A DNA stretch of 48,987 bases from Bacteroidales bacterium (GCA_028282585.1 JANQHR010000058.1:1-48987); one strand, 5' to 3'. Positions 1 through 16,932 are shown, counted from the first letter of the stretch. The notes: generated by a model from the letters alone, not told the origin. Translations and numbers: made by a program.

Positions 1-354
1 TTTTTCATCATTCTGTTCATTAAAAATCTCGAAAGTTTTTTCATTATACCATTTAGGGATACCACCATTTATGTCATTAAACCACTCTCCTTCTTGTTCA
101 ATTTCATTGGAATTAAATCCAGTTAAAAGTGCCTTAATGATAATTCTATCATCAGGTTTCGGATCACCACCATAAAAATCATAATCACCAATATTACGAA
201 CCAAACTATCCTTACCTAAGACTAAACCAATGGCATCAATTATGGTACTCTTACCAGAGTTATTTGTACCAAGCAAAATACAATGTCGTTTTAGATTTAT
301 ATTAGCTTTTTTAATCCCCCTGAAGTTTTCTATTTTTAAATGAGCTAGATACAT
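1..354 (-). CDS. OLD-family / AAA_15 ATP-dependent endonuclease, N-terminal fragment (runs off window edge)
   Basis: Not in ORF track. Manual translation from ATG at 354: MYLAHLKIENFRGIKKANINLKRHCILLGTNNSGKSTIIDAIGLVLG...DYDFY; IENFRGI plus Walker A GxNNSGKST typical of OLD/ABC-type ATPases. Confidence 0.85.
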   Translation of the reverse strand, partial: MYLAHLKIENFRGIKKANINLKRHCILLGTNNSGKSTIIDAIGLVLGKDSLVRNIGDYDFYGGDPKPDDRIIIKALLTGFNSNEIEQEGEWFNDINGGIPKWYNEKTFEIFNEQNDEK

Positions 355-509
355 TATCTCTATAAATTAATTGTAAAATCCTTAAAACGTTAAATTAATT
401 ATTAAATGTAGCATATTTTTAGGGAAATATTAAACGATTTACAAGAAATGCAATCTTAAAAATTAAAGAAAATAATATGATTAAGTAAGTTATTTTACTA
501 ACTTCAACT

Positions 510-1265
510 ATGGTATTTTTAAAACCTGGAAATAGGATTTATCATTACTGTAAGTTATCTACAGCGTTAAATTTCATTTTACCAGAAATGAAATTATTGC
601 TAAATCAAATAATTAAAACTAATGATCCTCGCGAGAATAAAGATTTTAACTTTGCAGCAACTTACTGGTCATCAGATAATTCTTCGAAATTAAATAATAG
701 AAATAAAGAAATTAGTCAACTACTACGAGAAGATTGTAAAGTACTCTGCTTTTCTACAGATTATAAACATTTTTTTGGAAGTAACTTGTCAAGTATGTGG
801 GCTCATTATGGAGATAATCACAAAGGATTGTGTTTAGAACTTGACAGAAATGAATTTATTAAAGAGAACAAAGATAAAATTCAAAAAGGCTATTTTAAAG
901 AAATGATTTATTATGAGTTTAATCCTAAATTACCCATAAGACATAAAATGGTTGATTTTACTGCTGTTGAAGATAACAACTTAAAGAAATATATAAAAGG
1001 AGATTTCAGAAAAAAGCATCTTGATTACTTGTATTTTACTAAAAATAAAGAATGGAATAATGAACATGAAATAAGACTGATATATTTTAGTAACAATGAT
1101 GAAAATGAATATTGCTTAATCAAAAAAAGCCTAAAGAATATACACCTAGGTATTGACTTTGAAGATAAAAATCTTCCAATTATTAATACATTAGCAAACG
1201 ATAAAGATATTTACAAAATGAAGTATGGTGATGTAGGATTGATTAGTATTCCGTTAACAATTTAG
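510..1265 (+). CDS. DUF2971 family protein
   Basis: Motifs IYHY, NDPRE, LCFS, SMWAHYGDNHKGLC, TKxxEWxxEHEIR. Confidence 0.85.
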   Translation: MVFLKPGNRIYHYCKLSTALNFILPEMKLLLNQIIKTNDPRENKDFNFAATYWSSDNSSKLNNRNKEISQLLREDCKVLCFSTDYKHFFGSNLSSMWAHYGDNHKGLCLELDRNEFIKENKDKIQKGYFKEMIYYEFNPKLPIRHKMVDFTAVEDNNLKKYIKGDFRKKHLDYLYFTKNKEWNNEHEIRLIYFSNNDENEYCLIKKSLKNIHLGIDFEDKNLPIINTLANDKDIYKMKYGDVGLISIPLTI

Positions 1266-1636
1266 TTTTAATATAGTTTCGATACGTATTAACTAAATGG
1301 ATTTTCTAGTTGATTATTTATAATTTTCATTATAGCATTTATTGATAAACCCATTTCAATATACTTTTGAATCTGTTCTCTAAAAGGATCAAGTCCCCTG
1401 CCCTTTTTGTTTCCACTGCCTTTAGGTCTACCTAATATCTTCCCTTGCGATTTAGCGGCAATTAAACCTTGTTTTGTACGCATGTATATATCGTTATTTA
1501 TAGAATTTAATAGATTGCAATAATGCTCTTTGTTATTTCTTTCAAGCTGATTATTAAAATAGACCTCTTTTCCAAATTCTACAACTAAAGCAGTCATCAC
1601 TCCAATAATAACTCCAATATAGATTTCTTTTTTCAT
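1244..1636 (-). pseudogene. Chimeric ORF: hydrophobic N-terminus fused to C-terminal remnant of a serine resolvase (E-helix + HTH), frameshifted near end
   Basis: ORF 1289-1636 contains RTKQGLIAAKSQGKILGRPKGS...GLSINAIMKII; a shifted frame continues NTYRNYIKTKLLTEY* (HTH recognition helix-like); no catalytic YxRVS domain. Confidence 0.65.
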
Positions 1637-1735
1637 AATGGTTAATTAGATAAGTTATGTAAATATGATTTCAATTTTAAAATATTTAAAACTTTAATTC
1701 CATTAAGTAGATAGTAATTATACATTAAAAAACCA

Positions 1736-2695
1736 TTAATCCTTTTTATGGAATTCTCTTCTAATAACTGAAAACTGTTGATCTATTTCAGACATGAGTT
1801 TGGAAGAATGAGCAAATGAATTAAGGTCAGATTTAAGTATATTTTTCCAAGCATTAAAATCCTTCAATTCATGACTATCACTTATTTTTTTAATAGAATA
1901 TATATTGTTAGAATTAATTTGCTTTACTTTACATCTATCCTTCTCAAATATAATTTCATTGCTTATCAAATAAATAATATCAATTCGCTTTGGATCATAC
2001 TTCTTATTATAAATATTTTTAAAGTTAAAAATTGGAACAAATGCAACATAATATAAATCAGGAGTGTTTTTATTATCAATGAAAATAACTGAACAATCAT
2101 ATAAAATATATGATTTACCCATGTATTCTATTACTGCACCATTCTTAAATATTCTATTCAGTTCATCACTAATCCAATGTAATTTATTTTTCCGTTTTTC
2201 TCTTAAAGAAGTATTTTCATATAAATCATTAATTAAATCTATTGGTTGTTCAATCCATTTAAGCATAAAGGGTCCTGCAGTGCTATGAAAGTTTGGATGA
2301 GTTTGATAATTTCTAAAGTTTCTTATATGATTTAAGTATTCATTATTAGTAACTTCAAAATAGTTTTGATCCTGGAACCAATCAATAAGGTTTTTTAAAT
2401 TCCTTCGCTTTTCACCTTTTTTAGTTTTTTTAACCCAATTTTCTTCTGTTAATTCAAAGTACCTTATTTTTAAAGCCATTTCAAAAATTTGCCATGCTTT
2501 AGAAGCCGCAACATCGCAAAATTCATATTCATAATAGCTGTGAATTAATAAATTTTCTACTACTTTAAAACTTTTCTTAACATCATCTGGAACTTCATCT
2601 TTAAAATAAAATTCTGGAACAATGTTTTTATTGAAAGACTCGAAATCATCAGTTCCTCCCCATGGTTCCCATCTAGGATCTTTTGTAAATTTCAT
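1736..2695 (-). CDS. HEPN-like domain protein
   Basis: FEMALK upstream helix and Rx4H motif RNYQTH in a helical N-terminal half. Confidence 0.55.
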   Translation of the reverse strand: MKFTKDPRWEPWGGTDDFESFNKNIVPEFYFKDEVPDDVKKSFKVVENLLIHSYYEYEFCDVAASKAWQIFEMALKIRYFELTEENWVKKTKKGEKRRNLKNLIDWFQDQNYFEVTNNEYLNHIRNFRNYQTHPNFHSTAGPFMLKWIEQPIDLINDLYENTSLREKRKNKLHWISDELNRIFKNGAVIEYMGKSYILYDCSVIFIDNKNTPDLYYVAFVPIFNFKNIYNKKYDPKRIDIIYLISNEIIFEKDRCKVKQINSNNIYSIKKISDSHELKDFNAWKNILKSDLNSFAHSSKLMSEIDQQFSVIRREFHKKD

Positions 2696-2735
2696 TTGTA
2701 GTAACGTTTTTCTATTCTATTAACATTTCAATAGA

Positions 2736-5213
2736 TTAAAATTCTTTCCTGCTAAACTTAAATTTCAAAGATTTTCCACGATATTTTGTTTCCATTTCTT
2801 TAAAAAACAATTCTAATCTTTGCTCTGTAATTAAAGGAAAAGGTTTTAAATCCTTTTTATGAATTTTTGAAAACAGTCTAAAGATTGAGCTATAAAACGA
2901 ATTTGGATCCTGTTCAATGAATTTATTATTCTCCCTATAGAAAGAGTATAGTCTTACTATAACATCTTCCGGAATAAATAGAATATTGCCTTTCCATCTA
3001 AATCTAAATTTAACTTTTTTGTAGAACGTTTCATATTTACTAAAATCCATGTTTTGTGAAATAATTGCATAGGTCTTTAAATTTCCATAAAATTTAATTT
3101 TATCATTTCCCTTAAGTTTATTAATATAATGTCTATGCTTTTCAGGTTTTTCATTTAGTTGATATCCATCAGTATGATTGCTGAATTTACAATCCCAAGC
3201 CATACAATATTTACTTGGCGTTTTATATTCTCTTATTGATACAATACCATCAGGGGCTTTAATTCCAATGAAACTATCTCCTAATTTATCTCCAAGCTTA
3301 AATATTTCATGTAAAAGGTTATATATATCCTTTTCGAAATCGTTATGATCATATTCATCATATTTATCTAATATATTGGTATAAGATTCATAACCCTTTC
3401 TTAAGATTCTCTCATTCCATTTATCTTTTTGATATTTTAATATGTTTTGAAAATCATTGTTTAAATTTTCTGTTTCTGCAGATTTTATGTATAATTCCAC
3501 AAGTCCTTTACACGAAAAGTTTCTTTCTTTAAGTTGTTTATTTAACGCATTTTTATAGCGACATAGAATAACTAATAATGGATTCCCACTTTCTTCAAAA
3601 TGCGTTAATAATTTAACTGGTGGAGTATCGGAAGATACATAAACAGAAAGATTATCATGATTATCATCTAAAATTTCAATAATAGAGTGTTTCTGCTTAG
3701 CTATTTGTATATTGATGTCTGAAACATTTAATCCACTTCTTTTTAATAGATTATAAACAAATCTATGAGCGCCTTTTTTATTAATTTTAACATCAAAATA
3801 CCTCCCTTCGATGTATAAATCATTTCCACATTTAGGACAAGCGTTACTCTTATCCCAAGTCTTATTTCGACATGATTCACATACTCTTTTTGCCTCCTTT
3901 TGTAATTTTTGAAGAATCTTATTTTCGATTAATTCTAAAAGCAGTTCTTCTACATCTTGTGATATTTGATTTACAAGAATTGTTTTTTTATCTAGAATTT
4001 TGGACAATAGTCTTTGTTTATCTTGTTTAGAATTATTAGGTTTAAGCCATTGATTTAATATAACTCCAAATTTATCTTCAAATGATTTTGAAAACTTTTC
4101 CAAGTCATTGCGAGTAATATTTTTGTCTACTATGGTCAGACGATGTGTTCCCCAAATCGTTTCGTAAACATTAACTTTTATAGTAAGTCCATAAGAAGTG
4201 AATGTAAAATTTTTAAATTCTGAAAAATCATTTAGTTTAAGTGTACCCCTTCTTTTAAAGTCTGCTAAAACCGGGATAATATCATTTTTATATTGTTCAT
4301 CGGTAACTCTAATCTGCTTTGCCCAATTGCTATCTTTAAAACTTGCATCTACAATTTTAATATCTTTTGATTCGTTTTCATCAAGTACTAAATTGAAGAA
4401 TCTTACAGGATCATATGTAAATTCATTACGTTTATATGATATCCGATTTTCTAATTTCCTAGAAAAGTAATTCCTTATTTTGATTGATTCATCCTTTGAC
4501 TGAACATTAATCATTAACTCCTTAGTTTTTGGATCAAGTGAGATTAATCTATAAACTCCAGAAACAGTGCTAATGTTATTCGGAATTGCTACAGCGACTT
4601 TATCTGCTGTTTCTTTAAGAATTAAAAAATACCAAAGCTTAGTTCCTTTATAAGAAAATCTATACTTATATTCTTTCTTTTGTTTATCAATTCGTTTTAA
4701 ATAATATGTTAAGGGTTTTATGAATTTTATTATATTTTCATAATCTTCGTCACTAATATTCTCACTTAACTTATATATAAATCCCTTACCCAGCTTTTGT
4801 TTAAGTAAATATAAGAAAAGACCTTCAAGCCTTTCTTTCTTATATAGCTCAAAAACTTTGTCAATTACTTTTGATTTATCTGGATTACTTTTAGCCCAAG
4901 TTATGTTATATAACTCAGCAATACCTTTAGGATGTTTAAGAGAAAAATCATGTAAACATAATACCAAAATAGAGAGTTTTGTGTTGCTTTTTAGAACAGT
5001 CGTCAACTTAGCATCTTTGTCATAAGAATAATTAAAATGCTCAAATAAACTAGTGAGTGTCTTATAGCTAAATAATTTTAATCCCTTGATAAACTTTTCT
5101 TTGTAAATTTCATCCCACCTATCACAGTATGAGTCAATATTTACTTCAATGTTTTTCCAGAAATACCTTTCTTCTCTTGAAAATAAATCGGTTTTTAACT
5201 TTTTTGAACTCAT
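2736..5213 (-). CDS. Large protein with Zn ribbon and C-terminal FokI-like PD-(D/E)xK nuclease domain
   Basis: CESC...CPKC; FEKDIYNLL...GDKLG...APDGIV...WDCKFS...GYQL...HRHYI parallels the FokI cleavage domain (GKHLGG..KPDG..VDTKAY.GGYNL..MQRYV). Confidence 0.65.
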   Translation of the reverse strand: MSSKKLKTDLFSREERYFWKNIEVNIDSYCDRWDEIYKEKFIKGLKLFSYKTLTSLFEHFNYSYDKDAKLTTVLKSNTKLSILVLCLHDFSLKHPKGIAELYNITWAKSNPDKSKVIDKVFELYKKERLEGLFLYLLKQKLGKGFIYKLSENISDEDYENIIKFIKPLTYYLKRIDKQKKEYKYRFSYKGTKLWYFLILKETADKVAVAIPNNISTVSGVYRLISLDPKTKELMINVQSKDESIKIRNYFSRKLENRISYKRNEFTYDPVRFFNLVLDENESKDIKIVDASFKDSNWAKQIRVTDEQYKNDIIPVLADFKRRGTLKLNDFSEFKNFTFTSYGLTIKVNVYETIWGTHRLTIVDKNITRNDLEKFSKSFEDKFGVILNQWLKPNNSKQDKQRLLSKILDKKTILVNQISQDVEELLLELIENKILQKLQKEAKRVCESCRNKTWDKSNACPKCGNDLYIEGRYFDVKINKKGAHRFVYNLLKRSGLNVSDINIQIAKQKHSIIEILDDNHDNLSVYVSSDTPPVKLLTHFEESGNPLLVILCRYKNALNKQLKERNFSCKGLVELYIKSAETENLNNDFQNILKYQKDKWNERILRKGYESYTNILDKYDEYDHNDFEKDIYNLLHEIFKLGDKLGDSFIGIKAPDGIVSIREYKTPSKYCMAWDCKFSNHTDGYQLNEKPEKHRHYINKLKGNDKIKFYGNLKTYAIISQNMDFSKYETFYKKVKFRFRWKGNILFIPEDVIVRLYSFYRENNKFIEQDPNSFYSSIFRLFSKIHKKDLKPFPLITEQRLELFFKEMETKYRGKSLKFKFSRKEF

Positions 5214-5340
5214 TGTTTAATTTTTAATTAAATACATTAATCATAAATTTAATAAAATATCTTCATATTTTGTTAATTATTAATGTACTAACATAAGTTT
5301 TTAGTATTTATTTTAAACTTACACTTACAGGGGAAACTTA

Positions 5341-8300
5341 TTATTTTTTTACTTGTGAATTATAATGCTCGTATATGTTTCGCAAATAATCAAATCCTGC
5401 TTCGCCATGAAGGAGACAAATTTTATCAGCTAATTCTTTTTGATCATTTTTGTAAATAACTTCAACAAGTCCTTCTACCTTACCTTTTGAAATATCGTAT
5501 GTTATTTCATTAGAAAACAGTTCAACAAGTATATTAGCAACTCTCTCAGTATTGCTATCAATATGAATTCCTAAATATTCAATTACAAAATACTTATCAT
5601 GTTGCTCTAGATATTTTATTGAAAACAGAATCCATTCATAGATTTGATCATCTAAATTCTCTATGTTTTTTATCCATTTTAAGCAGCCAGACAGAATAAA
5701 CTTGTGCAATTCAGGATTAGATAGGTCTTTAGAAAAATCATACAGTAAATTCCACAAAGGTTTGATTTTTTCAATTTCAACTTTTCTTAACGGAGAATCA
5801 TGCCGCCAAAAGAAATGAATGATGTATGAAAAGTGTTCTTTCTTTTCTATTTTTAATATATGTTTAAAAATTTCTTCTTCAAGTTCAAAACCCTTAAGCT
5901 CAAGCACAAATGCTATGCATATATGATTAATCAAATTATCAATAACCTCTTGTCTTTCATTTTTAAAATCATGATTCAAACCTTTAATTACATGACCTTT
6001 TTCTCTTAAAAGATTTAAATGATGCTTATATGGTCTACTATTATAAAATAGATAACCACACATTGCGGCATTCCAATTTATTTCATTCTTTAAACTAAAA
6101 ATCTTATCAAAATTTTCTAAAAACCAATCTTTATTAAGATATTCAATATTTGGTAAGAATTGCCCTAACACAAAATGTAATAATTCATTATTTTCATTTG
6201 TATTTAAAGCTTTTTCAATATAATTTATTATATCTTCATCCCATTTATTATTCTGTTTGTACTTTTTCAAACTAAAATATATTAATGAAGAATAAATTTT
6301 CCCACGGTTATTATTTAAAACGGACATCGATAATTCCATCATTTCAGTTATTTCAGAAAGATCTTTATCTAACATATAAAACATCAATTGTTTTATAAGG
6401 TCAAACAATTCTGATTCATATTCAACAGTATCATTTTGAATTACTTTAGTTAAAATACCAATGCTGTAAAAGCAAATTTGCGAATTATAATGATGTTTGA
6501 TATTATCACCATTGTTGTCCCAAAAACTATCAGACTGTTGTATCTTTTGAATAATACTAAAAACATTAATTAAATTAAATTCTTTTTCGAACTTCCATCC
6601 TTCATATATTCCTCTGCACCAGCTATACTGAAAGTGTCTCTGTGCATTTATTATTTCATTATTATTTCCATTAAATCTATTTATATCATTTGAGATTACA
6701 GATGAAACCATATCTGCGAATCCATCTAGTGTTGGTCCTAGAAAATCTTCTTTTTTCTTGGATAATACGTCAAATTCACTTATTATATCTTTTAATTCCA
6801 TATTATTAACTTCATCAAAAGTATATGGTGAAATATTCCCGTATATACTTTCATACCATGAATCGAATCCTGGGTGTCTAATTGGAGTAGAATCTCTCTC
6901 TTCATATTTCTGCATTAATTCTTTAACCTCTGGATTTTCTAATGTTTCTAATGCAGTCAATATTTCTCTTTTTTGCCTTGATATAATATCTTCATAGTTT
7001 TCAATGGTTTTCGGAATCTTATAGTTTATTTGATCTATCCATTTTAATATTAAGCTAACTTCATCATCCAAGAAATCTTCGGTATGGTTTTTTATCAATT
7101 CATAGATTTCATGCTTGCAGGTTCTATTATCTAAAGGATTATCATTCCAATTAAGAAATAAGCTTTTATGTTCATAATTACAGTTTATTGCATAGATTGC
7201 TAAACGATAAAAAATGTCAAAATTTGAATTAAATAATAATTTTATAATTTCCTTCTGCTCATTGTTAGTCAAGCTGTTAATTGAATCCCTTACAAAATAA
7301 ATTAACTGACATTCATAGCTATAAGGTATAGAAGTTTGATTATGATCTTCGATAGCGGGTAAAGTGGAAACACTAAATAAACTATTGTTTAACCTTAATA
7401 ATTCTTCCATAAAGTAAACTGCCAATTTTGTTCCATCTATACCACAATTTTTCAATAATCTATCTCTATCATCATTTAGCGTGCTCTGCAACGTTCCATG
7501 TTTAAAGACTGAATTAACTGTTATTGGTTCTGAATCGTTATTTTTTTGATAAGTAAAAACTATACTTAAAGAAATTAATAATAAATCTTTCTGATTCTCA
7601 GTTATAAATTTTCTAAGAATTAGCTTGTTAAAATCTCCAGCAATTAAAAGAGTCTCCCAACTAGTATGGAAAAATTCAATTATATATTCAAAGTGTCGAT
7701 TGTCTAAATATTCACTTGGTATGTTGGAAATAATTTTTAATAATGAATAATCTGTTCTATAGTTTTCTATTCTTTTCCCTTTATCATTTCTGAAAAGTGA
7801 AATTGCATCTATTATTAATAATAGAATATTTGTAATCTTGGGGCTGGGATTATTAAAATTTTGCTGACTAACCTTCTCTAAGTAAGTTAAAACGCTCCAA
7901 AAAGGCATATAATAAAACCCTGGATTCTCCTTGGATTCTTTTGGATATGGATTTTTATCACCCGCAAAATATTCATTCTCATATAAAATTTCTAACCATT
8001 CCACTGATTTTAGATTATTAAAGAAATATGAATATCTTGAATCAAGCGTTAATAAATTTGGTAAAGATTTTATTAATGAACTCGAAGGTGCATTATTATT
8101 AATAATTATATCTAATCTATCTGCAATAGAATAATAATTTCCAATTAATCCTTCTAGAATATCTAAAAAATCCTCCCATAAACTATTAAATTCATCAATA
8201 TCTCTAGGTGATTTCCACACACCATGTCTATGTGCAAATGAATGGAATTGTTTTGCAGTCTTATGCCATTTTTTTGAAAAAGCAGTGTCTTCTTTAATTC

Positions 8301-8562
8301 CAAGTGCTCTCTTTATAGATTCGCTATGAGTTACTTGAGTAATACGTCTGCCACATTCATTGCAAGGTTGACTATCTTCATTATTTACAGGTGATAAAAT
8401 TTCTCTTAAACCTGATTCAATTTCTCTTGAAAGATGTCCTAATAAATAAGGTTTTGTAGTTAGATCTTGATTAAATATTTGAAGTGCATCATTAAAAAAT
8501 GCTGCAATTTCCTTACCAATTACCTTTAATCCATTGTATATGGCTAACTCTCTTGCATCCAT
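5341..8562 (-). CDS. Large alpha-helical protein with possible HEPN-like N-terminal domain (putative defence protein)
   Basis: 1073-aa ORF; N-terminal GHLSREIESGLRE...FHSFAH, CNEC; remainder helical-repeat-like; no Walker A seen. Confidence 0.5.
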   Translation of the reverse strand: MDARELAIYNGLKVIGKEIAAFFNDALQIFNQDLTTKPYLLGHLSREIESGLREILSPVNNEDSQPCNECGRRITQVTHSESIKRALGIKEDTAFSKKWHKTAKQFHSFAHRHGVWKSPRDIDEFNSLWEDFLDILEGLIGNYYSIADRLDIIINNNAPSSSLIKSLPNLLTLDSRYSYFFNNLKSVEWLEILYENEYFAGDKNPYPKESKENPGFYYMPFWSVLTYLEKVSQQNFNNPSPKITNILLLIIDAISLFRNDKGKRIENYRTDYSLLKIISNIPSEYLDNRHFEYIIEFFHTSWETLLIAGDFNKLILRKFITENQKDLLLISLSIVFTYQKNNDSEPITVNSVFKHGTLQSTLNDDRDRLLKNCGIDGTKLAVYFMEELLRLNNSLFSVSTLPAIEDHNQTSIPYSYECQLIYFVRDSINSLTNNEQKEIIKLLFNSNFDIFYRLAIYAINCNYEHKSLFLNWNDNPLDNRTCKHEIYELIKNHTEDFLDDEVSLILKWIDQINYKIPKTIENYEDIISRQKREILTALETLENPEVKELMQKYEERDSTPIRHPGFDSWYESIYGNISPYTFDEVNNMELKDIISEFDVLSKKKEDFLGPTLDGFADMVSSVISNDINRFNGNNNEIINAQRHFQYSWCRGIYEGWKFEKEFNLINVFSIIQKIQQSDSFWDNNGDNIKHHYNSQICFYSIGILTKVIQNDTVEYESELFDLIKQLMFYMLDKDLSEITEMMELSMSVLNNNRGKIYSSLIYFSLKKYKQNNKWDEDIINYIEKALNTNENNELLHFVLGQFLPNIEYLNKDWFLENFDKIFSLKNEINWNAAMCGYLFYNSRPYKHHLNLLREKGHVIKGLNHDFKNERQEVIDNLINHICIAFVLELKGFELEEEIFKHILKIEKKEHFSYIIHFFWRHDSPLRKVEIEKIKPLWNLLYDFSKDLSNPELHKFILSGCLKWIKNIENLDDQIYEWILFSIKYLEQHDKYFVIEYLGIHIDSNTERVANILVELFSNEITYDISKGKVEGLVEVIYKNDQKELADKICLLHGEAGFDYLRNIYEHYNSQVKK

Positions 8563-8630
8563 AAACTATACGATCTGATAAAGTTATAGACATTGAAATT
8601 AAACAAAAAGTAGATAAAATGAACAAAAAG

Positions 8631-8891
8631 GAGTAGATAAATTAGCTTTATAAATTTATAAAAGAAGTAGATAAAGGTCCAGTATATGTGATTATTGAAT
8701 TGTAAAACTGTAGTTTAATAATGATATTAAATTGGACAATTCTTCTTGTGCTACTATATATCTTCAATATCAAATTGGACAATTTAACATATCTCTAGAA
8801 ATTAAGAAAAATTGTTGCAACAAAGAACTAATATAAGGAAGCTAGATTTTATGTTTTTTTCATGTTTGGATAAACTAACTTATCTTCCACA
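8631..8891 (-). mobile_element. Transposon-like end, copy 1 (Tn7-like architecture)
   Basis: Minus strand begins TGTGGAAGATAAGTTAGTTTATCCAA; related 20-mers at 8866-8885, 8775-8794 (16/20 identical), 8732-8751; colinear with 16151-16410. Confidence 0.7.
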
Positions 8892-8969
8892 AATGTCAAT
8901 CAAATTTCAAATACTCAATTCTCAGAGAGTTATTGTATTAATAAAAATGATTCTTTAAAATTATTTAAA

Positions 8970-9566
8970 CTATTCTTGTTTTATAAAATTAATTCTTTGG
9001 TCATTCAATTTAGGATTAAGGTTAGTCTTTTTACTATTAAAAGCATAATAAACCGTTGCAAGTAATATTTTTATATTAAACTTTAAGGACTTTTTTCTTA
9101 CATAAAAATTATCAAATCTAATTTGTAAGTGCTTATCTAGTTGACCTTTTTTTAATAGCCAGATTTGTGCTAAACATGTATTCCCAGGTAAAACAGAGCA
9201 TCTTTTATCATAGTTTAAATCTTTTAGTAATTTCATTGGTAAAGCTCTAGGTCCAACAAAACTCATTTTGCCTATTAAAATTAAGAAAAGTTCCGGAAGC
9301 TCATCTAAATGGAACTTTCGAATAAATCTTCCGAATCTATTAATGCGATCTTGTTCGAAGAATACTCTTCCTAGTTCAGTACCAGATTTCATTGATTTAA
9401 ACTTGAAATGAGTGTATTCCTTTTTACCCTTTCCTACTCTTTTTGAGATATAAAATGGTGGGAATTCAATTAATACAGAACAAAGAATTAATAGAAATAG
9501 CATTATCGGTAGTAATACTATTATCAATATAAGAGAAAGCAATATGTCAAATATTCTAATTGCCAT
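8970..9566 (-). CDS. Monotopic phosphoglycosyl transferase (bacterial sugar transferase, PglC/WbaP family)
   Basis: RIFDILLS, KFKSM, GRFIRKFHLDELPEL..GKMSFVGPR, PGNTCLAQ; start better placed at ATG 9566 overlapping the MurD-like stop. Confidence 0.9.
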   Translation of the reverse strand: MAIRIFDILLSLILIIVLLPIMLFLLILCSVLIEFPPFYISKRVGKGKKEYTHFKFKSMKSGTELGRVFFEQDRINRFGRFIRKFHLDELPELFLILIGKMSFVGPRALPMKLLKDLNYDKRCSVLPGNTCLAQIWLLKKGQLDKHLQIRFDNFYVRKKSLKFNIKILLATVYYAFNSKKTNLNPKLNDQRINFIKQE

Positions 9567-10998
9567 GTATAAGCTCATTAACATATTTCTTAAATAAATT
9601 ACCTCTTTCAAACATATCAGTAAAATATGGTGCACCACTGCATCCAGAAGAAAGCAATAATGTACCATTTTCATCCTGTGCCTTTTTTAATCCCACTGAA
9701 GTGGCTTCCTTTAGAGAATCAACTATAGTATAATTATCATATTTCAAATTAGATAATAATTTTAGAATTATCTCAGAAGTACTATCATTTCTATATAAAA
9801 CAACATTTATATTGCTTTGAACTAATCTATGGGATAACTTTTCAAAGGAAAGATTTTTGTGACCACCACCACCTATAATTAGTGTTATAGGTAATTTATC
9901 GCATGATTCTATTGCGAACATTACTGATTCTGGCGTAGAAGCTGCTGAATCATTTATTACTGCAAAATTAGAGTTCGTATTTAACAACTCAAACCTATGT
10001 TCTAAACCGTTATATGAATTTAAAGCCTTTAAAAGCAAATTTTCATTTAACTCAATGTTTATATAGAATTCTTTTATATAATAATATGCTGTACATATAC
10101 TGGCAACAACTAATTCAAAATGATGAGATACTCGTAGAGTTGTATTTAATTGATTTACAGGTGCTAACTTATAGAAATCACCATTTTGGTTTAATGTAAT
10201 ATATCCATCTTTAATAAAACATACAGCGAAGTAATTTGGCAAATCATTGTCTTTCAATTCTTCACTAGTGAATAAAACTTTCTTAGATTTAGTAGTTAAA
10301 CCAGCTATTCTGTTATCATTTAACGGAAGAATACAATAATCATCAATATTTTGATGTTTTAATATGTTTTTTTTATCATCAAAATACTCATCAATATCAT
10401 CATAAAAGTTAAGGTGATCTTCAAAGAAATTGAGCCAACATGCTATATTTGGTGACTTTTTATGTTTATTAAGTTCTCTCAACTGCCATGAAGACATTTC
10501 GAGAACAAAATCATTGGCTTTTCCTAAATAACTCAAAGGTGAAACACAATTATTACCTGCTGCAACACTATTTACTCCTAAGAATGATAATAAATGATTT
10601 GTTAAACCAGTAGTATAGCTTTTCCCTTTAGTTCCTGTGATGCCAATATATTGCTTATTATTTAATTCTGAAAAAATACCAATAGGACATTCCACAACTT
10701 TACCATTCTTTAAAGCATTCTGTATATAATTATTCGAATCTTTTATGCCTGGATTCTTGATAATAATATCGTGATTTTGAAAATCAGTTTCTCTATGTTT
10801 CCCTAATACTAAAGCTTTTGGAATATCTTTTACAAGTTTTAATGATTCTCTTAATGATTCTTCATCTTTAAGGTCTGTGATAGTTATTTTTGCACCATGT
10901 TCATAGGCAAATCTAGCGGATTCAACACCGCCACCTTTTGTACCTAATCCCATGATTAGAACTTTTTTATCTTTAAAATCTGATAAGGATTTAATCAT
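9556..10998 (-). CDS. MurD-like amino-acid ligase (divergent, outside dcw cluster)
   Basis: GLGTKGGG, NPGI, ITGTKGKS P-loop, LEMSSWQL, DHLNFY, GLEHRFE, INDS, LLS..ERG. Confidence 0.85.
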   Translation of the reverse strand: MIKSLSDFKDKKVLIMGLGTKGGGVESARFAYEHGAKITITDLKDEESLRESLKLVKDIPKALVLGKHRETDFQNHDIIIKNPGIKDSNNYIQNALKNGKVVECPIGIFSELNNKQYIGITGTKGKSYTTGLTNHLLSFLGVNSVAAGNNCVSPLSYLGKANDFVLEMSSWQLRELNKHKKSPNIACWLNFFEDHLNFYDDIDEYFDDKKNILKHQNIDDYCILPLNDNRIAGLTTKSKKVLFTSEELKDNDLPNYFAVCFIKDGYITLNQNGDFYKLAPVNQLNTTLRVSHHFELVVASICTAYYYIKEFYINIELNENLLLKALNSYNGLEHRFELLNTNSNFAVINDSAASTPESVMFAIESCDKLPITLIIGGGGHKNLSFEKLSHRLVQSNINVVLYRNDSTSEIILKLLSNLKYDNYTIVDSLKEATSVGLKKAQDENGTLLLSSGCSGAPYFTDMFERGNLFKKYVNELIHGN

Positions 10999-11005
10999 TC
11001 CTATC

Positions 11006-11980
11006 TTAAATTACACCAAATAAAATTTTGTCTAACGAATTAACTGAACGATAACTACTTAATCCATTTGAGTATAAATCAAATATTTTCTTCCCTAATA
11101 ATTTATTCTCATCTGAATAACACTCATCAGCGACACATTTACCACATGAAACAGTGTTAAAGTCGGTATTAACGTCAAATAATTCCGCTTCTATTCTACC
11201 CACGAATCTCTGGCAGGCGTAAATTTTTTTATCACTCGAAATTAGAATGGTCTTTTCTCCTGCATTGCACATAAATTCAGGATTTTCTAAACCTAATAAT
11301 AGTCTATGATGACCACCTAATAAAATATTGTTTTGTTTTGCCAAACTGTATGCTTCTTTTATAAGATTATATTTTAAGTCATTAGACAGTGGATTGTCTG
11401 GGTCATATAATAAGGAAACTGAAAGATCATGAATATCTAAATCACTTTTTATATAAAGCATAAAATCATTAAGTCTATTTACGGTATAATCATCTAATAC
11501 CATATTGATATAAACTGGCATATTCAATGACTTTAATACTTTTATTCCTGATACAGTTTGTTTAAATGTATTTTGTCCATTTCTTGATATTCTCCTCTTA
11601 TTATGTACTTCTTCTATGCCATCTAAAGAAACTATATGAATAAGTCTGTTTTTATGCGAAGATTTTACTAATTCTAAAAGTTCTTTATTTATGAGTGTCC
11701 CATTACTATTGATGATTATCTTACCATTTTTAAAGCGATCTAAAAATGCATTTGATAATTCTAAAATGAAATTAATATCAAGATATGGTTCTCCACCAAT
11801 AAATCTAATTTCAGGATCTTTGTAATAATTTTGCTCATCAAGATTATCCATGAATTTATTTACAACCGAACGTATATTATCACGATCACACTTCTTTATT
11901 CTCTCAGTATGTGGAATATAACAATACGTGCATTCACAATTACAGTTTTGAGTCGTCATTAAATAAAGTCTAGTAATCAT
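11006..11980 (-). CDS. Radical SAM protein with SPASM/Twitch-like C-terminus
   Basis: CNCECTYC, GGEP, SLDG, CNAG...YAC...CGKC...C; likely start ATG 11980 overlapping the upstream stop. Confidence 0.85.
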   Translation of the reverse strand: MITRLYLMTTQNCNCECTYCYIPHTERIKKCDRDNIRSVVNKFMDNLDEQNYYKDPEIRFIGGEPYLDINFILELSNAFLDRFKNGKIIINSNGTLINKELLELVKSSHKNRLIHIVSLDGIEEVHNKRRISRNGQNTFKQTVSGIKVLKSLNMPVYINMVLDDYTVNRLNDFMLYIKSDLDIHDLSVSLLYDPDNPLSNDLKYNLIKEAYSLAKQNNILLGGHHRLLLGLENPEFMCNAGEKTILISSDKKIYACQRFVGRIEAELFDVNTDFNTVSCGKCVADECYSDENKLLGKKIFDLYSNGLSSYRSVNSLDKILFGVI

Positions 11981-12794
11981 ATTCGTATCCTCCCCTGCAA
12001 TCAAATTCAGATATTCTTTCTGGTAATGATGCTTTGCAAAACGAAGCCTTAATTCCAGCGTTTTGAAACCTTTCTGACGTTTGTTTTAATACTTTTAACC
12101 TGTAATCAATATATGGATGCGTTGGCACATCAGATAATTCGGGATAATACTGCATCATGTTATCAATCAAAGTAGTTGATAAATGCTTCTTCATATTGGA
12201 AAGGATTTTGGATGAAATTCGTAGTGTTTCCGCAGTAATAGCACTAGGTTTACATTCATACAACCAATCAACTAATCTTTCCAGTTCTTTGCTATCCGTA
12301 ATCCCTGGTATAATCGGATCAATTTTAACAACTGTTTTTAAGCCTTCAATCTTTACAAGTTTTTCTATTAATTCTTTTCTTTCCGTTGCACTTGGTGCAT
12401 TTGGTTCTAATTGCTTTGTTAAATCATCATTTAAAGAATTAATTGAAACTGCTACAAAACTGTTTTTCTTATTCCTAAATAAGTCTATATCCCTTAACAC
12501 CAAAGGACTTTTAGTAATTACAAAAAATGGTATGTTTTTATATGAAAGTGCAGATAATATCTTTCTGGTATATCCTTTTTCTTTTTCTTCATAATCATAG
12601 CAATCTGTCCAGGGCGATAGGTAAAACGGATTATTATTCGAATTTAATGAATTTATTTTAGCTATTTCTTTATCTATATCGATGCCTGAATTAAGATCTT
12701 TGGTTTGAGATATACAATATATACAGTTAAACGAACATTGAGTATATACATCTATTTCATTATGAACTGGACATTTATTTTCGTATTTAGGCAT
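11970..12794 (-). CDS. Radical SAM protein, SPL/Rv2578c-like family
   Basis: YTQCSFNCIYC, TDCY, ITKSPLVLRDIDL, LEPNAPS..ER, PIIPGITD. Confidence 0.85.
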   Translation of the reverse strand: MPKYENKCPVHNEIDVYTQCSFNCIYCISQTKDLNSGIDIDKEIAKINSLNSNNNPFYLSPWTDCYDYEEKEKGYTRKILSALSYKNIPFFVITKSPLVLRDIDLFRNKKNSFVAVSINSLNDDLTKQLEPNAPSATERKELIEKLVKIEGLKTVVKIDPIIPGITDSKELERLVDWLYECKPSAITAETLRISSKILSNMKKHLSTTLIDNMMQYYPELSDVPTHPYIDYRLKVLKQTSERFQNAGIKASFCKASLPERISEFDCRGGYEYDY

Positions 12795-12797
12795 GAT

Positions 12798-13601
12798 TTA
12801 ATCAATTAATTCCGGTCTATATTCAAAATGCATAGTATCGTAGTGATACCATTTTCCACCCCATATAAAACCATGTTTTTCAAATATATTAACAATCTGC
12901 AAAGGTATTTTATTTTTGTATTTAAACTCCTTTTTAGAATCAATATCCCATTTCCAGTAATTAGAGTATTCAACGTTTATGTCGATAGCAATTCCAAAAC
13001 TGTGAGCACTTAATCTGTTTGTGCCACTAATAACACGCCATTTAAACGTACCTGCAGGCTTTATAACAAACTTTTTAAGTTCATCTGGCAATGTATCAAG
13101 TTCTTGCGATATCTGTTCTAACTTATTATGAATCCCGTTTATTTTTGTTACTAATAGTTTAGAACTATCAGAGTTTGGTAACCAAATAATTTCAACAAGA
13201 TTTTCTTTTACTTCTTCTTCGGTATTTCCGTACATCTTTTTTAGAAAAGCATCATTTCTAATTCTTCCAGGATCATAATTTAAAGATAATATGTCCATAT
13301 AATTTGGATCAGAAGGATATTCATAAAAAAACTGATCTTCGATATCGGGAAAATTTAGTAGCGAATCATGTGATTTAGTAAGTATTTTGTCATCAAATAT
13401 CATTGTAGTGCTATCAGTCCATATTAGCTGATTATCTTTAATTCCTAGAATAAAATCTGGATATGCCTTTTTTAGCTTATTTTCAATGCTTTCTATCCTA
13501 CTTAACTCTTTTGTTGGTATTTGTATGTTTTTTACTTCTTTTTGCCTACAACAGGTTAAAAACAGCAATAAAATAGATAATAATATGAATAACTTTCTCA
13601 T
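12798..13601 (-). CDS. M15 family Zn peptidase lipoprotein (VanY/CwlK-like)
   Basis: Signal peptide with Cys; R...SAHSFGIAID...WGGKW..YDTMHFEY. Confidence 0.9.
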   Translation of the reverse strand: MRKLFILLSILLLFLTCCRQKEVKNIQIPTKELSRIESIENKLKKAYPDFILGIKDNQLIWTDSTTMIFDDKILTKSHDSLLNFPDIEDQFFYEYPSDPNYMDILSLNYDPGRIRNDAFLKKMYGNTEEEVKENLVEIIWLPNSDSSKLLVTKINGIHNKLEQISQELDTLPDELKKFVIKPAGTFKWRVISGTNRLSAHSFGIAIDINVEYSNYWKWDIDSKKEFKYKNKIPLQIVNIFEKHGFIWGGKWYHYDTMHFEYRPELID

Positions 13602-13604
13602 TTT

Positions 13605-15068
13605 CTAACGAATGTAATCTTTACTTCTTCTTTTTAATAAATATTCAGGTTTGGGTTTCACAGGATTCCATAAACCAATTTTTTTAACTAAATCATAGTT
13701 ATCCAAATCAAGAATCTTCTTATAAAATTTTTGCCATTTATCTTCTCTTAATAAATAATATTCACCCTGCAAATGCTTAAGATTAATAAGATCTTCTTCA
13801 TCCAAGTATTTCTTAAAATAGTAGTATTTGACATTTGAAGTAATTCTCCAAACAGTCTCATATTTTGTTGAATCAATAGGTTGCCAATTGGTTGCATCAT
13901 AATCAGAATAGATTATAACAATTTGAGCCAAAGCTTGATGTGCAATAATAAGTTCAGCTTCTTTATCTTTCAAATATGAATTCACATTATCCATAGTAAT
14001 GAAATAGCTTCCATATGGCGGATCAAACTTGTTTGGGTTATATGATTTGAATGAAAAAGCCGATAACACTATTAGACAACCAATAAGCGAAATCTTAATA
14101 TAGTTAGGAAATAGCTTTACTAAATAAGGAATAGCTAGAACAGCTATCAAATTAAATGCAAGATAAAACCTAAAACCAATACTTGCTTTTGTAAATGTGT
14201 ATATAGGCAAGCTTAATACCATTAAAGTAGTAATCAGAAATTTACTAGCATCATCAATTTTTTTGGTCTTTATAAATTTAAATAGCTTTATTACTAAGAA
14301 TACAAGAAAAGCTATATAAAGTAGTATTGTTTCAACTTTCCAAACAATGGACATTTTACTCCATCCAAAAAAGTCAATCAGTTGCAATGGCGGAATATAT
14401 AAACTCTCTGATATTAAATTGGAGAATCTTTCAAAATCTGCAATATGAATAATTCCAGGTAATAAAAAAGCTATCAATAAAGCAAGTGCAACAAATGGCA
14501 ATAATAACTTGAATTTAAATCCTTTTAGAAAACCAATCAAAAGTATAATTACAGATATTCCAGCAATCATCCTATGCGCCATAAATCCAAGTAAAAAGAA
14601 AACCCCAGTCCATATCAATTTTCTTTCAGCTAAGAAATATAAAAGCCATAAGAAAAATATTACACCTAGCAGATTCTTCGGAAACTGTGCAGTGAAATAA
14701 TAAAAGGTTGGACTAAATATAAAAAAGGCACCAACTAAGAAGGATGTAAAAATATTATTTGTTAGTTTTTTTGAAATGAAGAAAGCTGAAACCGTTAATG
14801 TTCCTGATAATACAGCACTACCAATTTTAAATGCGAGTATGTAATCTCTAGCTAAATAAGATAAAGTTATGTAATATGGATAAATTAAAGAATAATCAGG
14901 TGAACGCATAGCTCCCTTCTCAATGAAAGTATAAGCTTGCATTATGTAATAATATCCATCCCACCCATTTGCAAATGGAGTTTGATTTAATGCAATGAAT
15001 TGCAAAATAAACGAGATAAGAAATATTACAGGTAATGAAATTTTTATTAAAACAGACTCTTTAATCAC
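13605..15068 (-). CDS. Polytopic membrane protein, GT-C (ArnT/PMT-like) glycosyltransferase-like
   Basis: About 10 hydrophobic segments; first loop NGWDGYYY acidic motif; soluble C-terminus. Confidence 0.55.
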   Translation of the reverse strand: MIKESVLIKISLPVIFLISFILQFIALNQTPFANGWDGYYYIMQAYTFIEKGAMRSPDYSLIYPYYITLSYLARDYILAFKIGSAVLSGTLTVSAFFISKKLTNNIFTSFLVGAFFIFSPTFYYFTAQFPKNLLGVIFFLWLLYFLAERKLIWTGVFFLLGFMAHRMIAGISVIILLIGFLKGFKFKLLLPFVALALLIAFLLPGIIHIADFERFSNLISESLYIPPLQLIDFFGWSKMSIVWKVETILLYIAFLVFLVIKLFKFIKTKKIDDASKFLITTLMVLSLPIYTFTKASIGFRFYLAFNLIAVLAIPYLVKLFPNYIKISLIGCLIVLSAFSFKSYNPNKFDPPYGSYFITMDNVNSYLKDKEAELIIAHQALAQIVIIYSDYDATNWQPIDSTKYETVWRITSNVKYYYFKKYLDEEDLINLKHLQGEYYLLREDKWQKFYKKILDLDNYDLVKKIGLWNPVKPKPEYLLKRRSKDYIR

Positions 15069-16069
15069 TTTTTACCTTCTTCAATATCTTTGATATAATA
15101 TATGTTGTACATTTCTATTTCCGTAAGTTGATCTGTTATATCATCATGAATGCCATTATACCAAGGTTTTGAACCGAAAAAATTCTGCATCTTTTCAGTT
15201 TTAAATTTATAGCCCTTTCTAGCATAAAACTGATTTCGAATGTAAGTTAAATCCTGCTTATCAATAATTTCTAGGTCTGTTTCATCAAATTTCTTTTTTT
15301 GCCCTAATCCATGAATTATTTCAAAAAGATCTACATTAATTTTATCTAGAAATTCATCAAAATAAATAGGTCCATTTTCACCATAAGTACTATAGTGATA
15401 TGCATCGACAGAGTAAAACTTTCCATTTATCGTTAAAAATAAAGTATCGTTAGCTTTCTTATCGAAATGCCAGCTTCCTTTAACAATAAATCTATTTGAT
15501 TTTTTAACATTCTGTAAACTTGTATCTATTTGGTCAAGCCTACGCTGATGTTCATCATTCCATTCTTTAATTTCTTCTTCTGACATTTTTTCTTCCTCTG
15601 ACCAGTGTAATCTATGACCTTCACCTACATCTCTTCTTTTTAAATCATATTCTGTTATGTCACTATCATAAATTCTATAAAAATTAAAAGTTTGATCCGA
15701 TAAACTAACTGTTATTGAGTCCTTAGGATTTTTTATTTTTCTATAGGGATCCAAATGCTTTTCATTAATATATTCAATTAATATGTAGCTCATTAAAGCA
15801 TCTGTTAATCCTTTAAAAATATTTAATTCAGTTTCTGTTGCTTTACTTAAGCCAATATCGCTAAAATAAATTGATTCAAAAGTTTCATAATTGCTTTGAA
15901 TTACATTCGGAATCTTTTTTTTCTGATTTTCAATTGCTTTCTTATCAATTGTAGGAGTTGCTTTTACTTCTTCTGTTATTGCCTTAGCTGTATCGCTTTC
16001 TTTTTTTTCAGTTTTAGAGTTGCAGCTGATTAATAATAATAAAGCTAGAATGATGCTTAGATTTCTCAT
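15065..16069 (-). CDS. YARHG-domain lipoprotein
   Basis: Lipobox LLISC; C-terminal IRNQFYARKGYKFKT..MQNFFGSKPWY..LTEIEMYNI. Confidence 0.85.
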   Translation of the reverse strand: MRNLSIILALLLLISCNSKTEKKESDTAKAITEEVKATPTIDKKAIENQKKKIPNVIQSNYETFESIYFSDIGLSKATETELNIFKGLTDALMSYILIEYINEKHLDPYRKIKNPKDSITVSLSDQTFNFYRIYDSDITEYDLKRRDVGEGHRLHWSEEEKMSEEEIKEWNDEHQRRLDQIDTSLQNVKKSNRFIVKGSWHFDKKANDTLFLTINGKFYSVDAYHYSTYGENGPIYFDEFLDKINVDLFEIIHGLGQKKKFDETDLEIIDKQDLTYIRNQFYARKGYKFKTEKMQNFFGSKPWYNGIHDDITDQLTEIEMYNIYYIKDIEEGKK

Positions 16070-16097
16070 ATCATTTATGTTGTTAGTAAGATCAATA

Positions 16098-16105
16098 CAA
16101 AAATA
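16098..16105 (-). promoter_or_regulatory. Bacteroidota -7 promoter box for the YARHG-to-PGT operon
   Basis: TATTTTTG (TAnnTTTG) about 30 bp upstream of ATG 16069. Confidence 0.45.
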
Positions 16106-16150
16106 GAATTATTTTTTACTTATGAATTAATGAATGCAATTTTAAATAAC

Positions 16151-16410
16151 TAGTAGATAGTTAGGTTGTTGAATTTAAAAAAGTAGTAGATTAATTGTAA
16201 AAATATTAATACATAGAATTGTATATCAGTTTTTTTAATTATGATAATGAATTGGACACTTCTACTTAAGCAACGATATGTCATCAGGTAAAATTGGGTA
16301 ATTTAGCTTTTCTTTAAAAATTGTGAAAAATGGTTATAACGAAGTTCCAATAAAAGAAAGCTAGGTTTTATATTTTTTTCATGATTGGACAAACTAACTT
16401 ATCTGCCACA
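16151..16410 (-). mobile_element. Transposon-like end, copy 2 (Tn7-like architecture)
   Basis: Minus strand begins TGTGGCAGATAAGTTAGTTTGTCCAA; related sites at 16385-16404, 16294-16313, 16252-16271; similarity to copy 1 stops exactly after ...CCACA. Confidence 0.7.
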
Positions 16411-16442
16411 CTCGGTCCCGACGATTACTGCCGGGATTCGAG
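16411..16442. repeat. GC-rich imperfect palindrome (REP-like or terminator) abutting the transposon end
   Basis: ctcggtcccg-acgattactgc-cgggattcgag. Confidence 0.55.
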
Positions 16443-16476
16443 AACGATCGAAATTATGTTAAGTTTTTTGTTCCCT

Positions 16477-16932
16477 TTACAAAGTTTTATATGACCACAT
16501 TTTATCTTGTCCGGGTTTACCTTCAAATAATTCAATCTTATTATCTTCGGGCATAAATACTACATCAGGAAGGTTTGTTGTTCCAAAGTCTAAATATTTT
16601 AGTGTTTCACTATCTGATGTATTCTTTAATTGATGCACTCCCTTTTCTCCAGCGGGAAATCTTAAAATATCGCCCGACTTAACTTTTAATACTCCACTCG
16701 CTGTTATCACTTCTCCATGCCCCTCAATGATATAGAAAATTTCCTCGTTGCAAGTATGATAATGGAGTGGCCAGTTGATTTTCCCCGGTGAAATTTCATA
16801 TATATCGCAATACATTTTGTTGACGTGTTCATCATCAATTATTCTTTTTCTGTTATGCTCTATTTCATCAGCCTTTGACCAACTACTCCATTTTACTTCC
16901 TTTTCATTGATTTTTAATGTCTTATGTTTCAT
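16477..16932 (-). CDS. Cupin domain protein
   Basis: PLHYHTCNEEIFYIIEG...GDILRFPAG...HQLKN. Confidence 0.9.
   Translation of the reverse strand: MKHKTLKINEKEVKWSSWSKADEIEHNRKRIIDDEHVNKMYCDIYEISPGKINWPLHYHTCNEEIFYIIEGHGEVITASGVLKVKSGDILRFPAGEKGVHQLKNTSDSETLKYLDFGTTNLPDVVFMPEDNKIELFEGKPGQDKMWSYKTL

Follow-up and report, generated by a model that had tools for sequence, protein, structure and literature searches.

The window analysed here is a stretch of 48,987 nucleotides from a Bacteroidales bacterium (GCA_028282585.1, JANQHR010000058.1), which corresponds to the entire contig C27 of a 4.89-Mb assembly (G000; 173 contigs, 98.35% complete). It carries two related non-coding repeats of about 260 bp, at 8631-8891 and 16151-16410, and a matching inverted end lies on contig C106 of the same assembly. 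These ends are real and transposon-like and their arrangement is tandem, while no fresh transposition footprint is present and the element is non-autonomous. The best explanation, to which we assign a probability of roughly 0.6, is that relic or non-autonomous (helper-dependent) modules of TnsB/TniA type are stacked in tandem beside the chromosomal dif site. The repeats would then be the left-end arrays of two related cargo modules from a genus-restricted TnsB/TniA-type family, within the superfamily that includes Tn7, Tn5053/Tn402, Tn552, and IS1202.

Two left ends, an inverted right end, and an eroded junction

An earlier note, made from the sequence alone, had described the two segments as aligning almost without gaps, which was borne out by comparison with the whole assembly. 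A BLAST search with 8631-8891 recovered the query itself and 16152-16410 (75% identity, query 2-261, E 2.2e-40), and the next-best match was a segment of 34 nt (E 0.001), indicating that only two copies exist and that the repeat is not dispersed genome-wide, a case that the note had named as refuting its proposal. In a MAFFT alignment, few one-base gaps were needed, and the terminal 120 nt were gap-free with 81% identity. Both copies close with CCACA (8887-8891 and 16406-16410), beyond which the sequences from 8892 and from 16411 onward are unalignable, so the abrupt loss of similarity at these termini also stands. Copy A reaches left to approximately 8605, farther than the 8631 previously noted. 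No open reading frame (ORF) of at least 80 aa overlaps either copy, and neither a tRNA nor an Rfam family at gathering scores could be detected in the window. The ends and their parts are as follows:

8605-8891, minus strand: left end A, with terminus TGTGGAAG and site 1 at 8866-8891, site 2 at 8775-8794, and site 3 at 8729-8748
8609-8616, 8632-8639, and 8666-8673: three copies of the box AGTAGATA in left end A
16151-16410, minus strand: left end B, with terminus TGTGGCAG and site 1 at 16385-16410, site 2 at 16294-16313, and site 3 at 16249-16268
16152-16159 and 16185-16192: two copies of the box AGTAGATW in left end B
C106:2872-3044: right end, following gajB, with terminus TGTGGCAG, two adjacent 22-bp sites, and a conserved 23-bp inner block
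8892-8935 (44 bp), plus strand: inner block of a truncated right end, which abuts the terminus of left end A and lacks the outer terminus and both sites

Each left end is built from an 8-bp TGTGGMAG terminus followed by sites of approximately 20 bp dispersed across about 165 bp. The three spaced 20-bp repeats reported earlier do exist, although a GTCCAA core (TTGGAC on the plus strand), present in three spaced sites per copy, describes them better. An alignment of five left ends (A and B, those of the related genomes G049 and G012, and a truncated end of G018) revealed that the terminal 26 nt and two GTCCAA-core sites, about 102 and 147 nt inward, are conserved; across this genome and the three others, the three GTCCAA sites are the best-conserved blocks. 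Farther in, up to three ATCTAC boxes (AGTAGAT on the plus strand of the window) are found. The AGTAGATW box occurs 13 times in the window against 4.55 expected, a count reached in none of 100 shuffles. On the other hand, a strict 13-nt site pattern was found at two places in the window and was equalled in 13 of 100 shuffles; thus, the short sites alone are not significant, and the observation of the repeat rests on the 260-bp homology and on conservation across genomes. In its inner part, end A resembles the left end of G018 (79% identity) more than it does end B (68%), and therefore A and B are not a simple local duplication.

By searching the genome with the terminal 34 nt and allowing mismatches, one further copy was identified on the minus strand of C106 at position 3044. 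Its terminal segment (C106:3019-3044) is identical to end B at 24 of 26 positions and inverted, so the inverted end starting with TGTGG that the earlier note had anticipated does exist. Eight right ends were aligned (G000, G018, G013, G048, G052, G051, and two metagenome contigs), and all of them have the terminus TGTGGCAG, two directly adjacent 22-bp sites, a variable stretch, and the near-invariant block TTTCAAATATTCAATTCTCAGAG; the second site of the G000 copy is degenerate and accompanied by about 55 extra bp. The family thus has asymmetric ends, with sites dispersed on the left and adjacent on the right.

The two contigs can be joined. The start of C27 (reverse complement) overlaps the start of C106 by 14 nt in frame, and the gajA reading frame crosses the join, with GajA profile positions 1-91 encoded in the window and 118-466 on C106. 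A Logan contig of 23,564 nt from sequencing run X1 spans both contigs, and covers window positions 1-16612 without a difference; the inverted 26-mer lies at positions 3923-3948 of this record, in precise agreement with the location predicted from C106:3019-3044. This run may represent the source sample, and it is therefore independent as an assembly only, not as a sample.

The combined map begins with gyrA, a gene for a 389-aa TPR protein, a terminator, a dif candidate, a dif-like hairpin, the right end (C106:3044), gajB, and gajA. It continues with genes for a DUF2971 protein, a recombinase remnant, a DUF4145 protein, an 825-aa protein, and a Dsr1-like protein up to left end A (8891), and is completed by the segment 8892-8969, an envelope operon (8970-16069), left end B (16410), a dif-like remnant, and a cupin gene. 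Module 1 comprises 11,921 bp, module 2 comprises 7,519 bp, and the composite comprises 19,440 bp (module 1 and composite measured from X1 record coordinates). The GC content is 26-27% in module 1, 28.5-29% in module 2, and 29-35% in the remaining contig (18000-48987). The defence genes lie between the right end and end A and the envelope operon lies between ends A and B, in agreement with the earlier assignment of these cargoes to the ends at 8891 and 16410, respectively.

The segment 8892-8935 aligns to the near-invariant block of the eight right ends and differs from the C106 copy at 1 of 22 positions. It is thus not target DNA, and the proposed AATGT duplication at this place is void. The predicted 5-bp duplications (AATGT and CTCGG) fail in any case, the flanks being CCGAG at end B or ACATT at end A versus TAACA at the right end. 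Of the nested or tandem transposons suggested before, a tandem array is what remains, although it does not consist of two complete elements, as one right end is intact and the other truncated. Eroded ends were also found in relatives: in G018 (L045:11170-11530), a left end without its outer 100 bp abuts a right end without its first site, and G052 (L046:3030-3100) retains part of a right end 17 kb inward of an intact one. The inner right-end block was noticed once more, with 2 mismatches in 22, around position 1675 of G000 contig C93, a contig of 3.5 kb with no recognisable terminus or sites, and this copy may be another remnant.

With regard to distribution, the degenerate 26-mer (at most 2 mismatches) was detected in 10 of 37 genomes of the genus, in addition to a lone terminus in G016. 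A scan of one genome per species yielded one locus with a first pattern and 91 stretches with a looser one. Among the looser-pattern loci examined, eight rows are true ends, located in seven members of this genus; most of the other rows share one long identical flank, presumably 23S rRNA, and the rest are isolated chance matches that lack a second site. A metagenome scan returned four loci, three of which are right ends of this family, and no end of the family was present in a viral collection. Among the species genomes scanned, all those with ends of this family belong to this one Bacteroidales genus.

The neighbouring dif candidate

The right end of the island faces a sequence resembling a chromosome dimer resolution site, and a second such sequence lies outside end B:

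C106 (L009):3139-3166: dif candidate (28-mer), downstream of the TPR and gyrA genes
16437-16464, plus strand: dif-like 28-mer outside end B, whose 13 nt at 16449-16461 are repeated directly at C106:3045-3057

The last 11 nt of the candidate are the XerD arm of Escherichia coli dif, GGTGCGCATAATGTATATTATGTTAAAT, as printed in PMC3025954, and its core has the form ATAA-N6-TTAT. A strict dif pattern occurs only twice in G000 and is kept at the locus in 13 of 17 loci searched (this genome and 12 relatives). In the complete genome G009, coarse sampling placed a plus-to-minus change of skew between 1.15 and 1.38 Mb. Raw GC skew in this genome is dominated by gene orientation, and hence only the strand-corrected analysis is usable. 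Over 400 kb around the locus, the strand-corrected change point falls in the 10-kb bin from 1,336,001, the site itself being at 1,336,479, and the mean skew is 0.069 to the left versus 0.014 to the right (Mann-Whitney p 3e-5). Based on the E. coli-type XerD arm, the conserved locus, and the change point in G009, the 28-mer is probably dif.

The right termini point to the dif candidate in 9 of 12 cases examined, at distances of 55, 61, 97, 124 (three times), 187, 203, and 220 bp, with G000 accounting for the 97 bp. In the remaining three, the contig has only dif-like arms (G048), the flank is 136 bp long (G008), or the lone terminus lies 8.8 kb away (G016). This orientation may result either from repeated targeting or from one old insertion. 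The array occupies a single conserved chromosomal site, as the idea of stacking at one attachment site had implied. Neither a tRNA nor a non-coding RNA (ncRNA) is suitable as this attachment site or as the identity of the repeat; both were rejected, as no tRNA, Rfam family, or conserved fold was found.

The island is located on the side of dif that bears the XerC arm. The interval separating dif from the ends contains further dif-like sites and the hairpin, which a second dif-like site makes together with an inverted arm. In G000, the complete hairpin is restricted to this locus, and the sole other copy of its arm word here is a half-hairpin beside end B. Moreover, the 19.4-kb composite is bracketed by the direct 13-nt repeat listed above.

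Two side observations concern this locus. Contigs of 6.9 and 4.8 kb from runs X2 and X3 match only window positions 16412-16475 (64 nt, the dif-like remnant) and neither flank, which means that this segment occurs in another context in those runs. At L015, L018, L020, L021, and L024, the contig ends no more than a few hundred bases from the TPR gene, indicating that draft assemblies of the genus tend to break at the TPR locus.

Transposition genes and cargo

Searches of the island ORFs with Pfam, NCBIfam, and PADLOC found no transposase or integrase, the only related sequence being a serine-recombinase remnant at 1289-1636, and no AAA_22/TniB-type ORF was found in the island. Genes for tnsA, tnsB, tnsC, or tniQ had been expected to the left of the window, but none is there; the next contig carries GajA/GajB, the right end, and then dif, the TPR gene, and gyrA. 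The TnsA profile (PF08722) had no match in G000 or in any of 14 control genomes, and the Mu-transposase-C profile (PF09299) was likewise silent in both G000 and the control genomes; these two negatives therefore carry no information. With two ISNCY models, whose coverage of IS1202 is assumed, only a 453-aa ORF on contig C4 and no TnsB-like gene was recovered from G000. This ORF was rejected as the cognate transposase, because it is unrelated and its sequence reads as IS5/IS1182-like. Some rve gene is present in 22 of the 37 genus genomes, while the end-bearing G000, G052, and G013 have none. The rve matches across the genus are mostly ORFs of IS3/IS481 size (about 300 aa). Those of 505-526 aa that were examined were also rejected as the cognate transposase, as they are IS21-like with IstB and have no matching sites. 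As G000 is divided into 173 contigs, it may hold an unassembled transposase copy.

The nearest element with transposition genes was found in G048, a member of the same genus, which possesses a right end of this family together with a 696-aa rve/Mu-transposase-C protein, a 223-aa AAA_22 ATPase, and a 192-aa serine resolvase. These genes belong with a second end family, whose terminus TGTCAACCATAAGTAGAAATATGATTT comprises an 8-nt TGT terminus and is followed by ATAAGT-type sites. Ends of the second family (TGTCAACC terminus) occur in two colinear copies, at G048 C6:25997 and C6:28645, around a single 713-aa TPR gene, so that duplicated colinear ends recur in this group; the outer one is inserted within a dif-like site. 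The last 94 nt of contig C6 repeat its first 94 nt, and the contig is thus circular or closes on a repeat. A segment considered as the left end of a TGTGGCAG element in G048 (L013:16771-17167) was rejected, as it is an end of this second, related family. The transposase is similar to DDE proteins encoded on Bacteroidota plasmids and, at a greater distance, to Tn552-type 'Mu transposase C-terminal' proteins (22-32% identity). It had no match in a sequence search of the PDB, and the other end-bearing genomes contain no close relative of it.

The combination of TniA-like protein, AAA_22 ATPase, and serine resolvase points to the Tn5053/Tn552 branch rather than to classical Tn7. By way of G048, it also points to a placement of the family on the TnsA-less, resolvase-bearing branch outlined in sections of PMC8649781. 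Accordingly, the earlier description of the repeats as Tn7 left ends is retained for the end anatomy, which is that of the Tn7 superfamily, and not for the nearest gene-bearing relative, which is not classical Tn7; a Tn5053/Tn552 origin, which had been kept open, is where the gene set points.

The cargo of the two modules comprises the following features:

1-354, minus strand: N-terminal 118 codons of gajA (Gabija ATPase; PADLOC PDLC00086), the gene continuing at C106:3-1481
C106:1478-2845: gajB, after gajA and before the right end
510-1265, plus strand: DUF2971 protein, candidate defence gene PDC-S31 (Pfam PF11185, E 5.9e-12; PADLOC, E 7e-20)
1289-1636, minus strand: serine-recombinase remnant of 115 aa, C-terminal DNA-binding part only
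1736-5213, minus strand: two cargo genes of unassigned function, encoding 319 aa (weak DUF4145) and 825 aa (zinc-ribbon hints)
5341-8562, minus strand: Dsr1-like defence protein of 1073 aa, the first gene downstream of left end A
8970-16069, minus strand: envelope operon, the cargo of module 2 (Pfam; NCBIfam murD above cut-off)

In module 1, the recombinase remnant matches the Mpi-family invertase model NF009949 of NCBIfam over profile positions 125-183 of 203 (E 7e-7, far below the cut-off) and shares 76% identity across 42 aa with a comparable remnant from the island of G048. The adjacent 319-aa and 825-aa genes have Pfam matches below cut-offs and no PADLOC or NCBIfam family, and they may represent an undescribed defence pair. 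The Dsr1-like protein aligns to the PADLOC Dsr1 profile (E 7e-191) with residues 174-1068 on profile positions 320-1225 of 1227; it lacks the N-terminal third of the profile and has about 170 residues without a family match instead. Cargo next to the right end varies among genomes and includes Gabija, type I restriction-modification, reverse transcriptase, and small membrane proteins.

The envelope operon of module 2 encodes a YARHG lipoprotein, an EpsG-like protein, an M15 peptidase, two radical-SAM proteins, a sugar transferase, and a MurD-type ligase, which is a second one. This operon accompanies the ends in three genomes (window 8970-16069, L045 490-7591, and L047 442-5049). In G018, where six of the orthologous proteins are 78-88% identical and the YARHG protein is 59% identical, it lies directly beside an intact right end next to dif, and in G049, it lies behind a left end. 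Four G018 genes between the YARHG gene and the left end are missing from G000, whose YARHG protein matches a 202-aa gene of G018 over its first 36 residues. In runs X2, X3, and X4, which represent other samples of the same study, the envelope module is present at about 98% identity, with almost no cover over window positions 1-8760; the contigs stop at 8895, 4 nt from the terminus of end A. This stop is suggestive of a structural boundary, although absence of the defence module in these runs cannot be claimed, because the data are contigs.

Competing explanations and significance

If the modules were stacked by transposition, the envelope-carrying element would have occupied the site first. 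The arrangement in G018, with the operon beside an intact right end next to dif, matches what the G000 lineage would have looked like before it acquired the defence module, and would persist in G018 today. The defence-carrying element would then have inserted between the envelope element and dif, with its right end toward dif. Subsequently, the inner junction would have eroded, and the transposition genes may have been lost, or never carried and supplied in trans, with the left ends now probably serving as upstream regions of the cargo operons. Movement at present would probably depend on a helper transposase, on homologous recombination through the conserved flanks, or on Xer recombination at the flanking dif-like repeats.

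Several results weigh against this explanation. The rve profile (PF00665) had no match in the 98.35%-complete genome, while the control was positive in 7 of 14 genomes; in the absence of any DDE transposase, an autonomous transposon is refuted by the rule that the earlier note itself had set. The TniQ profile (PF06527) and tblastn searches with the TniA and ATPase of G048 likewise found nothing in G000. The end-bearing genomes G052 and G013 are also without any rve gene, and none of the 37 genus genomes contains an element of this end family with its own transposase. Binding of a TnsB-type protein to the GTCCAA sites is suggested by the end architecture alone. No target-site duplication was found for either pairing of the ends, and none could be recovered in any relative. 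Furthermore, a single ancestral insertion with later deletions, rather than repeated insertion, could have produced the junction positions, and the degenerate site with its extra bases in the G000 right end fits decay. Finally, an operon on the same strand starts directly downstream of each left end, and the conservation of the left ends could partly reflect promoter function.

The strongest rival, which we nevertheless consider unlikely, is that the modules are exchanged by Xer recombination, as in integrative mobile elements exploiting Xer (IMEX) or dif modules; host XerC/XerD would move them at dif-like sites, and the TGTGG ends would be fossils. This would account for the short distance between the island and a dif candidate bearing the E. 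coli XerD arm (PMC3025954), for the hairpin between dif and the right end, and for the bracketing 13-nt repeat of the dif-like 28-mers, whose words, like the full hairpin, are confined to the locus. It would also require no element-encoded enzyme, in line with the lack of a recombinase or transposase gene in the island. In addition, a dif-like site inside the Tn7-like element Tn6022 was recombined in E. coli with a transposon XerC-like protein and Acinetobacter baumannii XerD, according to parts of PMC11014353. However, Xer exchange leaves unexplained the inverted TGTGGMAG termini, the ordered arrays of 20-22-bp sites, and the conserved asymmetry of left and right ends. No dif-like site is present at the module boundary (8891/8892), the one outside end B lies 38 bp from that end and differs from the right-hand copy in its XerC-side arm, and the use of these sites by Xer is putative.

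It is less probable still that the 260-bp repeat is a host regulatory module, that is, a promoter with operator boxes, whose likeness to transposon ends is incidental or long domesticated. Such a role would suit the position of both copies, each directly preceding the first gene of an operon on the minus strand, the enrichment of AGTAGATW boxes and their repetition toward the gene-proximal side, and the occurrence of the same sequence upstream of the orthologous envelope operon in G018 and G049. Nevertheless, in both copies similarity stops precisely with CCACA, the far side of the island holds the terminal 26 nt again in inverted form, and the left end of G012 precedes unrelated cargo. Right ends that share the terminus follow convergent genes, a position in which a promoter would serve no purpose, and the repeat has only two copies in the genome. 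A structured ncRNA or leader, or an end of an IS21-type element, is highly improbable: the repeat is non-coding and has the same sense as the operons downstream of it, and the genus does contain IS21-type elements (IstB plus an IstA of about 505-522 aa), but Rfam families were lacking at gathering scores in the window and at E <=0.1 in four related loci, among them the right end on C106, the fold shared by five left ends reached only -0.95 kcal/mol with 6 pairs and no compensatory change (so that the second refuting case named earlier, a transcribed ncRNA, does not apply either), and five IS21-like or rve loci had no convincing matching site, the single match having 3 mismatches in 15.

Arrays of subterminal repeats of about 20 bp, dispersed on one side and packed on the other, with a TGT terminus, mark the ends of Tn7, Tn5090, Tn5053, and Tn552 in the account given in sections of PMC8649781. 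Tn7-like elements are described as having inserted several times over, rearranged internally, and left ancestral remnants whose ends can no longer be recognised (PMC8649781 and PMC11014353). The island resembles Tn7-like elements such as Tn7 and Tn6022 in its 5'-TGT, 8-bp terminus, and sites of about 20-22 bp (dispersed left, adjacent right), as well as in its fixed orientation by a conserved chromosomal site and its defence cargo. Unlike them, G000 lacks rve and TniQ and the island lacks all four types of tns gene; there is no 5-bp duplication, the distance to the target site varies from 55 to 220 bp, and one right end is truncated. With Tn5053/Tn402 and Tn552 it shares, through the G048 relative, the TniA-TniB-resolvase gene set and the same end build, and module 1 holds a serine-recombinase remnant; by contrast, the island has no tni genes, the region targeted is that of dif on the chromosome and not a res site on a plasmid, and the Tn5053-like element of G048 has ends of a different sequence (TGTCAACC terminus). 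The Tn5053 family was reportedly titled 'res site hunters' by Minakhina et al. in 1999, and is said to target a recombinase-bound site regionally and not base-exactly.

Targeting of dif itself is known from the IS1202 family (ISAjo2 type), which portions of PMC10132070 present as TnsB-like insertion sequences hunting dif/pdif, with TGT...ACA ends, an extra internal binding site, and one orientation by the XerC side of dif/pdif. The island likewise lies on the XerC-arm side of dif. On the other hand, those insertion sequences are 1.5 kb long without cargo, encode a TnsB-like transposase of about 450 aa, insert 5 bp from the XerC arm, and produce 5-bp duplications, whereas the island modules are 7.5-12 kb with cargo, lie 55-220 bp from dif, and show neither a duplication nor a transposase. 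As in IMEX and the Acinetobacter dif modules, the island is found at dif with flanking dif-like sites, no element-encoded recombinase, and module-wise variation among strains; it differs from them in its transposon-type inverted ends with ordered site arrays and in the lack of a dif-like site between modules. No cargo-carrying Tn7/Tn5053-type element targeted to dif was found in the literature searched (supplements excluded; PMC10293859 by term), which is not proof of absence.

A bolder and rather doubtful extension is that, in a marine Bacteroidales genus, a cargo-carrying TnsB/TniA-type family homes to the chromosomal dif region ('dif hunters', by analogy with the hunting of res sites by Tn5053 and of dif by the IS1202 family) and stacks a terminus-proximal defence/envelope island, whose modules are possibly passed on without their own transposase via a rarely assembled helper or Xer. 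For annotation, the practical warning is that transposase-based searches would miss all these modules. If the stacking of relic or helper-dependent modules is true, the cis elements (about 290 bp on the left and 175 bp on the right) and a candidate target would be defined for a new site-specific insertion system, and dif-directed insertion would extend from small IS1202-type insertion sequences to multi-kilobase cargo elements. The locus would also provide a concrete anatomy of how a terminus defence island forms in a Bacteroidales genus, through stacking by dif, erosion of inner ends, and loss of transposition genes.

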